A DNA stretch of 33,405 nt, from IMG/VR virus record IMGVR_UViG_3300017727_001923, positions 1 through 33,405 of that record. One strand, 5' to 3'. Shown piece after piece: positions 25,610 to 27,551 of the stretch (the stretch's first letter is position 1; every line of letters starts with the position of its first letter). The notes beneath the pieces were generated by a model. That model searched no databases, had not been told where the DNA came from, and saw only the letters and a list, made by a program, of their open reading frames with translations. The position numbers and the translations under genes were made by a program. The DNA comes from a virus.

Positions 25610-25638
25610 TTGACAAACAGCGCCATTCTTGTTATAAT
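25610..25638 (+). promoter_or_regulatory. Strong early-type sigma70 promoter
   Basis: AAAAAGC-TTGACA-17 nt-TATAAT with TG; shares AAAAGCTTGACAAAC with the 14760 promoter. Confidence 0.8.
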
Positions 25639-26343: not shown

Positions 26344-26634
26344 ATGAGAAAGAGTAACTTTAATAGGAGACCACAACGTCCTAAACCAAAGGTGTGGCCA
26401 AAAGACGGTGCAAGAGAAGTCACTGTCAGAAACGGAGATGTAGAAACTGCATTAAAGATTTTCAAAAGGAAAGTCAAGAAGTCTAACATTCTCTTTGATT
26501 TGAAGAAGAAAGAATTCTTTGAAACTAGGAGAGAAACTAGACGTACTGCAAAACTGAAAGCAATCAGAAGAGTTCATAAGAAAAGGATTAAAGACCTAGA
26601 ACTCGAAGAGAGAATGAAGTTCCGTTACAGATAA
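26344..26634 (+). CDS. rpsU: Ribosomal protein bS21 homolog
   Basis: VTVRNGDVETALKIFKRKVKKSNILFDLKKKEFFET...RR..K..AIRR matches the bS21 pattern; basic N-terminal extension. Confidence 0.85.
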   Translation: MRKSNFNRRPQRPKPKVWPKDGAREVTVRNGDVETALKIFKRKVKKSNILFDLKKKEFFETRRETRRTAKLKAIRRVHKKRIKDLELEERMKFRYR

Positions 26635-26667: not shown

Positions 26668-26675
26668 TATAAATA
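26668..26675 (+). promoter_or_regulatory. T4-type late promoter
   Basis: TATAAATA; a second copy at 26748-26755. Confidence 0.6.
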
Positions 26676-26697: not shown

Positions 26698-26769
26698 ATG
26701 TGGAAGAAATTACACAAACTTATGAAGTCTGCAAGACTACACAAAGTTATAAATATGTCTATAGGTTAA
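26698..26769 (+). CDS. Micro-protein (23 aa)
   Basis: GGAG RBS; MWKKLHKLMKSARLHKVINMSIG. Confidence 0.45.
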   Translation: MWKKLHKLMKSARLHKVINMSIG

Positions 26770-26780
26770 AGGAGTGTACC

Positions 26781-26966
26781 ATGAAAAAGACGAAACGTAT
26801 AAAGTCTCGTCACGCACGGGTACTGTTCACAAAGGACAGTCCTTTTACCCACAAGGTTGTGCCTGACAAGACCAAGTATAACCGCAAAAAGAATCCCCGC
26901 AAAGTCGGGGATTTTTCTTATTGGTCTTTATTAAATTCTCTAAAAGGTCTAACCTTCCCATCGTAG
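26781..26966 (+). CDS. ArfA-like basic protein (candidate ribosome rescue factor) with a terminator inside the ORF
   Basis: AAGGAG RBS; ARVLFTKDSPFTHKVVPDKTKYNRKK resembles the ArfA core (A.L..D..F...V...K...Y.RK). Confidence 0.5.
   Translation: MKKTKRIKSRHARVLFTKDSPFTHKVVPDKTKYNRKKNPRKVGDFSYWSLLNSLKGLTFPS
26886..26919. terminator. Bidirectional intrinsic terminator
   Basis: AAAAAG-AATCCCCG-CAAAGT-CGGGGATT-TTTCTT between convergent genes. Confidence 0.8.
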
Positions 26967-27229
26967 AATAACATCTTATACCAAGGAGTATCTCTTTTCA
27001 TACGTGGGATTGTATACTCAAACTTCTTCCCTTCTTTGTTAATCCAAACCACGTGATATCCAATCCATCTTCTTGACGGATACCATTGTGCCTTACCACC
27101 ATTTACAATCAGATTCTCTAGTGTCCAGAAATAACAATTGTTCTTTTTAGTGAACAAACGTATTGGCCATGACCAGAAAAACACAATCATGAGTGCAAAT
27201 GTAATCCATTTTCTGTATAAATTATCCAT
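26918..27229 (-). CDS. Hypothetical protein with N-terminal TM helix; the only clear minus-strand gene
   Basis: Start MDNLYRKWITF; ends at the terminator; occupies a gap with no + strand gene. Confidence 0.65.
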   Translation of the reverse strand: MDNLYRKWITFALMIVFFWSWPIRLFTKKNNCYFWTLENLIVNGGKAQWYPSRRWIGYHVVWINKEGKKFEYTIPRMKRDTPWYKMLFYDGKVRPFREFNKDQ

Positions 27230-27256
27230 ATAATTATATATACAGACCCTTGTTTG

Positions 27257-27264
27257 TATAAATA
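27257..27264 (+). promoter_or_regulatory. T4-type late promoter heading the csg/FecR/cyclase operon
   Basis: TATAAATA 5 nt before ATG 27270. Confidence 0.7.
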
Positions 27265-27269
27265 AAGGC

Positions 27270-27551
27270 ATGGATGAGATGGTAATACTAGTCTCCGAAT
27301 TGGGTTTTCCAGTTGCTGCTGCATGTTTGGGTGGGTTCTTCATGTTCCTAACATTAAAATACATAATGAATGGTGTTATTGATAAGGTAAATTTTATCAG
27401 TAATATGGTCTCTGGTCTCGATAATCGGGTAAAAAATATGAATCACGATATGATTCGTATGGATACAACCATGTGTGTAGTATTAGGAATCAAACCAGAC
27501 TTGAATAGAATTAGTAGAGCGGATGGACAGAAAGATGCACGGAGGGATTAA
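27270..27551 (+). CDS. Small membrane protein with coiled coil (paralog 1)
   Basis: ELGFPVAAA TM helix followed by GLDNRVKNMNHDMIR.D. Confidence 0.75.
   Translation: MDEMVILVSELGFPVAAACLGGFFMFLTLKYIMNGVIDKVNFISNMVSGLDNRVKNMNHDMIRMDTTMCVVLGIKPDLNRISRADGQKDARRD

Follow-up and report, generated by a model that had tools for sequence, protein, structure and literature searches.

A short open reading frame (ORF) in the genome of a marine phage carries an intrinsic transcription terminator ahead of its stop codon, and the question it raises is what kind of gene would be expressed in this way. ArfA and BrfA are the textbook genes expressed from mRNAs that lack a stop codon, so that trans-translation controls them, and in both cases this mode of expression has been thought a narrow bacterial invention. 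An earlier note on the phage DNA had read the ORF as an ArfA-like factor of the same type, and it is this reading that we follow up here. The DNA analysed (the window, 33 405 nt) is the first 33.4 kb of a 149,135-bp virus record, which is complete, with terminal repeats. The source is a T4-like marine phage with a genomic G+C content of 38%, which has Pelagibacter phage HTVC008M and Methylophilales phage Melnitz as distant relatives.

A terminator inside the reading frame

The ORF has 61 codons and runs on the + strand from an ATG at 26781 to a TAG at 26964–26966; its features and those of its surroundings are listed in Table 1. The hairpin is formed by AATCCCCG, the loop CAAAGT and CGGGGATT, followed by UUUUUCUU up to 26919, and the terminator takes up codons 38–46, encoding N38-P-R-K-V-G-D-F-S. 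The 66-nt region folds with a predicted energy of −20.2 kcal/mol (z = −3.5 versus shuffles), and the terminator scan calls the hairpin on both strands. The first in-frame stop lies 45 nt past the terminator, and positions 26918–26966 overlap the 3′ end of a convergent ORF. The earlier note had placed the terminator in frame and the first stop (26966) within the convergent gene, and these positions were all borne out. The frame stays open from the ATG up to 26964, so that an mRNA whose 3′ end lies in the U-tract (∼26914–26920) would carry no stop codon. This agrees, at the level of the sequence, with what had been claimed for the terminated mRNA, and we consider it likely that the transcript lacks a stop codon.

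When all of the 149-kb genome was scanned under strict terminator criteria, three + strand sites were returned. This one alone is spanned by an ORF, the other two lying 24–39 nt after ORF stop codons. The presence of a single ORF-spanned terminator, together with its recurrence in related loci (see below), indicates that the layout is more than chance.

Table 1. Features of the small ORF and its surroundings (positions in the window)
Feature	Position	Strand	Basis and remarks
bS21 ribosomal protein gene	26344..26634	+	PF01165 1.6e-13, TIGR00030 1e-11; upstream neighbour of the small ORF
TATAAATA motif, T4 late-promoter type	26668..26675	+	Read from sequence; 113 nt 5′ of the ATG
Second TATAAATA motif, late-promoter type	26748..26755	+	33 nt 5′ of the ATG
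Ribosome-binding site AAGGAG	26769..26774	+	Read from sequence; 6 nt 5′ of the ATG
Conserved coding part, 45 codons, ArfA-like/DUF7230-like	26781..26915	+	Residues 1–45 kept in 22 database proteins and 48 loci
Intrinsic terminator in the reading frame	26889..26919	+	Stem 26892–26899/26906–26913, A-U extensions from 26889, loop CAAAGU, U-tract to 26919
Unconserved tail up to TAG 26964–26966	26916..26966	+	Predicted not to form part of the terminated mRNA
Convergent ORF, 148 aa as listed	26918..27364	−	Shares the hairpin; no match in Pfam/NCBIfam
TATAAATA late promoter for the next + strand gene (ATG 27270)	27257..27264	+	Read from sequence

The strong AAGGAG ribosome-binding site (RBS) described in the earlier note is in place before the ATG. 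The claim that the ORF stands behind late promoters and beside bS21 also held, through the two upstream TATAAATA motifs and the PF01165 match of the neighbouring gene. Of the 17 loci surveyed in the clade that carries the hairpin, 9 have the bS21 gene immediately 5′ of the small ORF, as does L217, a relative with a normal stop. Related loci with S21 have TATAAATA at −101 to −113. In relatives without S21 the motif lies at −16 to −28 from the ATG, so that promoter, RBS, ORF and terminator make up a self-contained cassette of ∼155 nt that lacks a stop codon. Further 5′, at 25610–25638 (+), a perfect TTGACA-17-TATAAT promoter extended by TG stands ahead of the series of genes that includes bS21 and ends with the small ORF, which could thus be transcribed early as well as late.

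The convergent ORF abuts the terminator only in L001–L003. It lies 0.8–0.9 kb downstream in L004, L010 and L214, and most other loci have merely short partial matches to it that overlap the next gene. From this patchy placement, the convergent ORF looks to have been inserted between the terminator and the late promoter that follows.

The small gene is under purifying selection

A word-indexed search gave 22 related proteins of 49–88 aa, and 48 loci were obtained from IMG/VR. The 22 relatives agree over residues 1–45, to N-P-R-K-x-G-D-F, and then diverge wholly in sequence and length. Over 30 core codons, pooled pN is 0.11 versus a pS of 0.75, and the median dN/dS is 0.08. The gene is genuine and under selection, and this selection is strongly purifying over the first ∼37 codons. 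The ORF might instead be an accident within a non-coding leader or small RNA that ends in the terminator, as could be argued from its very short length, the lack of a family for the single sequence and the disagreement of gene callers about the ends of the gene (49–88 aa). However, the pN, pS and dN/dS values contradict such a reading, as do the strong RBS with its ATG and a profile search that returned 120 clusters of 33–111 aa proteins (see below), and we regard it as extremely improbable.

The discordant gene ends can be seen in individual entries. P0001 (88 aa) has an upstream GTG extension and P0103 (111 aa) reads through into the next gene, so database entries of the family are unreliable at both termini. 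The 88-aa form, from a GTG start at 26700, was rejected because the extension is unconserved and relatives have a promoter there. P0103 was likewise discarded as a query: it was matched by its tail alone, and this tail belongs to the downstream gene, into which the gene caller had continued.

The hairpin is conserved and the tail is not

An in-frame hairpin followed by 5–9 T (8–9 in most) is found in 19 of 19 distinct hairpin-bearing loci, which comprise 18 distinct IMG/VR loci of the close clade and one metagenome locus. The distance from the end of the terminator to the first in-frame stop ranges from 11 to 50 nt in these loci, the position of the stop being variable. Pairing of the 7-bp core stem is kept in all 18 distinct sequences aligned (L024 is outside the alignment used for this count), with loops that vary and with G-U pairs in four sequences. 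L021, L023 and L024 share a compensatory C-G to U-A change in the stem, which alters the protein (R to C and G to R), so that selection there acts on the RNA structure.

The tails differ in sequence and length across all relatives. L013 and L016 have identical DNA past the T-tract in different frames, one having T8 and the other T9, and a frame that depends on one T marks the tail as non-coding. In most relatives the TATAAATA equivalent of the motif at 27257 lies within ∼10 nt of the nominal stop of the small ORF, so the tail is intergenic DNA. In most relatives, too, this promoter and the next + strand gene come within a few bases of the terminator and there is no convergent gene, so the terminator belongs to the + strand unit. 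The more distant L235, which shares 91% identity with P0029, likewise carries this hairpin and T8 in frame, then TATAAATA and the next gene. The in-ORF terminator is conserved and the tail is non-coding.

The earlier note had proposed that homologs be checked for a terminator ahead of the stop and for tails that are not conserved; in the hairpin clade both were found. It had also named homologs with a conserved stop ahead of the hairpin as evidence against its reading. None of the 19 hairpin-bearing loci has such a stop, whereas more distant relatives do have ordinary stops, which makes the non-stop layout specific to some lineages. Many phage members of the family have plain stops and short acidic tails, and L214 and L217, which are orthologs in the same genomic slot, have ordinary stops and no internal hairpin. 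Since most family members end in ordinary stops, non-stop expression is not essential to the family; its tree is too poorly resolved for gains and losses of the hairpin to be counted.

The two same-slot orthologs were inspected individually. In L217 (2615–2700) the small gene comes right after S21 and is followed by a tRNA-like sequence that ends in CCA and then by TATAAATA. In L214 (2590–2640) the normal-stop protein ends in H-P-R-D-S-W-D. Its coding DNA, ATCCCAGAGATAGTTGGGAT, resembles a decayed terminator hairpin without a T-run, which hints at conversion between non-stop and stop states.

Together with the ordinary stops of L214 and L217, the poorly resolved tree, which suggests repeated switching between the two states, leaves room for a layout of no regulatory consequence, in the gene of an ArfA-like or some other small basic protein. 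The end of the gene would have merged with its terminator in a compact genome, and expression would be independent of tmRNA, by read-through or self-release; at 38% G+C a chance open tail of 4–16 codons would not be unusual. Against this, there is no stop between core and hairpin in 19 diverged lineages, although one point mutation would suffice to make one, and the U-tract is strong throughout, at the lengths given above. The same layout has also arisen independently in bacterial ArfA, in bacterial DUF7230 genes and in BrfA (PMC8012679), so that the coincidence would be confined to rescue factors, and the other strict terminators of this genome sit past their stop codons. We therefore consider a merely incidental overlap rather unlikely and prefer a layout that serves non-stop expression.

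The protein as a peripheral relative of DUF7230

The window protein alone was assigned to no family in Pfam or NCBIfam scans, and the Pfam models for ArfA (PF03889, E ≤ 10) and DUF7230 (PF23876) gave no match against the whole phage genome and the window protein. A profile built from 28 relatives and run against 1.84 billion representative proteins, with E-values up to 0.001, gave 120 clusters of 33–111 aa, with the consensus K-x-R-x-H-x-x-L-F-x-x-D-x-P-F-K-x-K-V-V-x-x-K-x-K-Y-x-R-K-x-K-H. Among the 119 members scanned, 64 matched DUF7230, a family with no assigned function, and 14 matched ArfA, all of the latter below threshold (best 1.8e-4). Against the Pfam gathering cut-offs of 25.5 bits for PF03889 and 27 bits for PF23876, ten DUF7230-matching relatives were re-scored; three lay at 28–29 bits, just over 27, and seven fell below. 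The window protein misses the gathering thresholds of both models, and by these scores it is a peripheral relative of DUF7230 and not a scoring member. The family and DUF7230 have in common the motif FxxKV(V/E)xD(K/R)TKYxRKxKH, whose KH end is replaced in the window clade by the terminator-encoded NPRKxGDF.

Other searches were run alongside these. In an Atlas feature search, taken as a lead only, the DUF7230 cluster ranked first and the ArfA cluster was among the named neighbours. PHROGs gave just weak matches to three families of unknown function, and the family profile run against PDB sequences gave one chance match and did not find ArfA. A tblastn search of cultured phages with the window protein and L220 gave no match, probably owing to their length and the low-complexity filter. 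Two further families were considered and set aside: a resemblance to bS22/Sra, seen by eye, was without Pfam support, and ArfT, described as a charged helix of the KGG-repeat stress-protein type (PMC6514570), is a different family, for which there was no Pfam match.

Probable placement of the family in the ArfA lineage

The family was compared with ArfA at the profile level, as the earlier note had suggested. The E. coli ArfA sequence was taken from the K-12 record, and the ArfA alignment was shallow because the class-wide search found ArfA in only 4 of 300 genomes. With hhalign, the 119-sequence family matched ArfA with E = 4.4e-5, a score of 31.8 and a probability of 68–69%, window residues 16–43 aligning with ArfA 19–49. 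As both proteins are rich in lysine, the columns of the ArfA alignment were shuffled 150 times as a control for composition; the shuffles scored 9.3 on average (sd 2.1, maximum 17.3) and none of the 150 reached 31.8. Run on 2,197 stop-to-stop ORFs of the phage genome to which known ArfAs had been added, the family HMM placed the ArfA proteins of phage J2-1 and of E. coli next after the window's own protein, at 26.3 and 20.9 bits, whereas the best background ORF had 11 bits. In the reciprocal direction, the DUF7230 HMM matched a single place on the E. coli K-12 chromosome, within arfA. The two models are bridged by the Pseudoalteromonas phage J2-1 protein, which passes both cut-offs, at 41.3 bits for ArfA and 28.6 bits for DUF7230.

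Together, the hhalign match and its shuffles, the HMM ranking, the E. coli reciprocal and the J2-1 bridge place the family in the ArfA lineage, and it is very probably homologous to ArfA as a divergent branch. The resemblance of the core to ArfA, remarked on in the earlier note, thus stands as a profile link for the family, whereas the window protein itself has no Pfam ArfA score. The note was also right that KGKGS is missing: in the hhalign alignment this loop of ArfA falls on D29-K-T-K32, followed by Y33, and is three residues shorter. The gene appears, then, to be a divergent member of the ArfA lineage, in the branch that Pfam calls DUF7230, in which a shorter D-K/R-T-K stands in place of the KGKGS loop.

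The same alignment pairs the functional residues of ArfA with the best-conserved part of the family. F25 of ArfA, which contacts RF2, corresponds to F22, and the strand Q27–E30, which adds onto the RF2 β-sheet, to H24-K25-V26-V27; in ArfA, F25 and this strand add onto RF2 superdomain II/IV (PMC8012679). F22 and H24–V27 are the most conserved residues of the family, V26 and V27 being invariant among 28 close relatives. The basic-tail residues Y39, R41 and K42 of ArfA fall on Y33, R35 and K36, within the basic tail Y33-N-R-K-K-N-P-R-K41 of the window protein. The KH motif, which binds a pocket in the mRNA channel in both ArfA and BrfA (PMC8012679), is kept in most of the family, including its consensus and L235, and the window clade has K37-N38 there. 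ArfA shortened to 40 residues is inactive; the predicted terminated product reaches the equivalent of ArfA residue ∼51–53, where the E. coli hairpin sits too. The N-terminal part of ArfA, including A18, is outside the profile alignment.

Comparison with bacterial and phage rescue factors

ArfA and BrfA are known to be expressed from non-stop mRNA (PMC8012679), and for the terminator type of this layout in ArfA, PMC8012679 cites the description by Schaub et al. 2012. The window gene resembles ArfA of E. coli and other Proteobacteria in several respects: an active form of ∼45–55 aa with a basic C-terminus, a hairpin in the ORF that would leave the mRNA without a stop, and an unconserved, hydrophobic tail past the hairpin. 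The E. coli arfA hairpin begins about six codons past the KH motif. Unlike ArfA, the window family has a K/R-rich N-terminus followed by SRHxRVLF, the window clade lacks both KGKGS, which is nearly universal in ArfA, and the His at the KH position, and the window gene lies behind late promoters in a virulent-type T4-like phage. BrfA of Bacillus subtilis is an RF2-dependent factor with a C-terminal KH, a rho-independent terminator before its stop and repression by trans-translation (PMC8012679). It too is a small factor whose terminator precedes the stop, but it has ∼62 aa and is confined to Bacillus; the likeness is one of layout, and no sequence relationship is claimed. Both ArfA and BrfA are species-specific.

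Both states of the gene end are found in bacteria. Among bacterial ArfA genes, L134, from the class-wide search, has a GC hairpin and T8 in the ORF and then an unconserved tail, and L133 has a plain stop. DUF7230 was found in 6/300 and 2/401 sampled bacterial genomes; in the 300-genome class sample, which has PF03889 in four, no genome has both PF03889 and DUF7230. In four of the eight bacterial DUF7230 genes the stop is enclosed or preceded by a hairpin or terminator, three have plain stops and one is cut by the contig end. L254 (G033:C24) and L255 (G245:C16) carry a long conserved hairpin, which begins immediately past the K-H-(K/R)-G at the close of the conserved part and takes in the stop codon. 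It has an outer stem of ∼14–18 bp and an inner stem, differs between the two genomes by a compensatory G-C to U-A change, and is similar in appearance to the RNase III-type hairpin of E. coli arfA. L258 (G156:C12) and L260 (G465:C1) have terminator-like in-frame hairpins with T-runs ∼40 and ∼85 nt before the stop. Judged from these gene ends, the non-stop state is recurrent but optional, as it is in ArfA itself.

The closest comparison among phages is the J2-1 protein named 'alternative ribosome-rescue factor A' (ATN93434, MF988720), which shares the VERDKTKYxRKxKH core without KGKGS. After its N-terminal half, which is that of canonical ArfA and lets it pass PF03889, the core reads V-E-R-D-K-T-K-Y-R-R-K-K-K-H-K. 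In contrast to the window gene, the J2-1 gene has an ordinary stop and no internal terminator. The canonical phage ArfAs (Pseudomonas pf16, Salmonella Arash, Citromicrobium RXM, Erythrobacter XM05 and Roseobacter CRP-212) are also phage-borne factors of the ArfA type, but they keep KG(K/R)GS(Y/F) and pass PF03889; no experimental study of them was found in the searched literature. Since these GenBank genes pass PF03889, phage ArfA as such is not new.

Three of these genes have features of their own. RXM g10 (L231:383–565) has an 11-bp GC-rich hairpin and UUUCC in its ORF, past K-G-R-G-S-Y-T-R-K, and a tail of ∼20 residues, and may also be expressed from a truncated mRNA. The pf16 gene (L229:386–538) is an unannotated ORF that scores 72 bits with the ArfA model and lies partly under a hypothetical CDS annotated on the opposite strand. 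The Arash homolog (L234:317–541, 68 bits) is annotated as 'ribosomal protein L2'.

A model of tmRNA-gated expression and its alternative

The interpretation of the gene as an ArfA-like non-stop factor, put forward in the earlier note, is supported; that it acts in rescue, where its mRNA really ends and that tmRNA gates it are inferences. The full model, an ArfA-like rescue factor made from non-stop mRNA and gated by host trans-translation, we put at somewhat better than even. What weighs against it most is the loss of the KGKGS loop and, in the window clade, of the His of KH; the window protein's lack of any Pfam ArfA or DUF7230 match, the uncovered N-terminal part of ArfA and the ordinary stops of most family members count against it as well. 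Host RNA polymerase would start at a late promoter, or read in from upstream, and would stop at the terminator of codons 38–46, giving a main mRNA of ∼155 nt without a stop codon, on which ribosomes would run to the 3′ end and stall. By analogy with ArfA and BrfA (PMC8012679), free host tmRNA-SmpB would then tag the peptide for degradation, and the untagged peptide of ∼45–47 aa would build up when trans-translation is saturated, for instance by the many mRNAs broken in infection or by an RNA-cleaving defence. The same analogy suggests that the basic C-terminal part (Y33, R35-K36-K37, R40-K41) would enter the empty mRNA channel of stalled ribosomes, and that F22 and the K25-V26-V27 strand would recruit a class I release factor, taken from ArfA to be RF2, so that the stalled peptide would be freed untagged. 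Such a factor could also release itself. No tmRNA gene was found by ARAGORN in the whole phage genome or by Rfam in the window, which is neutral for the model.

An ArfA descendant might, on the other hand, bind the empty mRNA channel and recruit no release factor, so as to block tmRNA-SmpB or ArfA, or to park ribosomes, in takeover or anti-defence; the non-stop mRNA would still limit its dose. The KGKGS loop is lost, the His of KH is lost in the window clade and the RF2-activating residues 1–18 of ArfA are not aligned, all of which would suit a blocker, and ArfA(A18T) demonstrates that binding without activation is possible (PMC8012679). On the other hand, the elements that the family conserves best are those aligned with the RF2 contacts of ArfA (F25 and strand 27–30, on F22 and H24–V27), a rescue inhibitor encoded by a non-stop mRNA would prevent itself from being released, and chromosomal DUF7230 genes with arfA-like 3′ hairpins in bacteria suit a housekeeping rescue factor better than a weapon. 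We consider such a blocker unlikely, and retain the rescue factor as the preferred reading.

Implications for phage translation and the ArfA lineage

A literature search found no paper on DUF7230, and no description of its link to ArfA, of a widespread KGKGS-less form in T4-like marine phages or of conserved terminator-before-stop regulation in a phage. Phage ArfA appears there only as a passing annotation, RXM g10 being named ArfA in one sentence (PMC8953757).

A wider proposal, which we advance tentatively and at a little under an even chance, is that the whole of DUF7230 may be a second, KGKGS-less branch of ArfA, serving for alternative ribosome rescue in many marine phages, and also in some bacteria with small genomes for which the searches gave no canonical ArfA. 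The T4-like marine phages would sense, through the non-stop mRNA, how much trans-translation capacity remains in the host, and would turn to a rescue pathway of their own, without tagging, only once tmRNA is saturated by infection or by RNA-cleaving defences. If the gene is indeed an ArfA-like factor made from non-stop mRNA, DUF7230, with at least 120 sequence clusters, would gain a testable function, and the ArfA lineage would extend to a form without its hallmark KGKGS loop. Virulent phages would be seen to have taken over the factor together with the unusual way in which it is regulated. The finding is of interest to the fields of ribosome rescue and of phage translation takeover, and the compact cassette of ∼155 nt is directly testable. 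Ribosome rescue would then join bS21 and tRNAs among the host translation functions that marine phages supplement.
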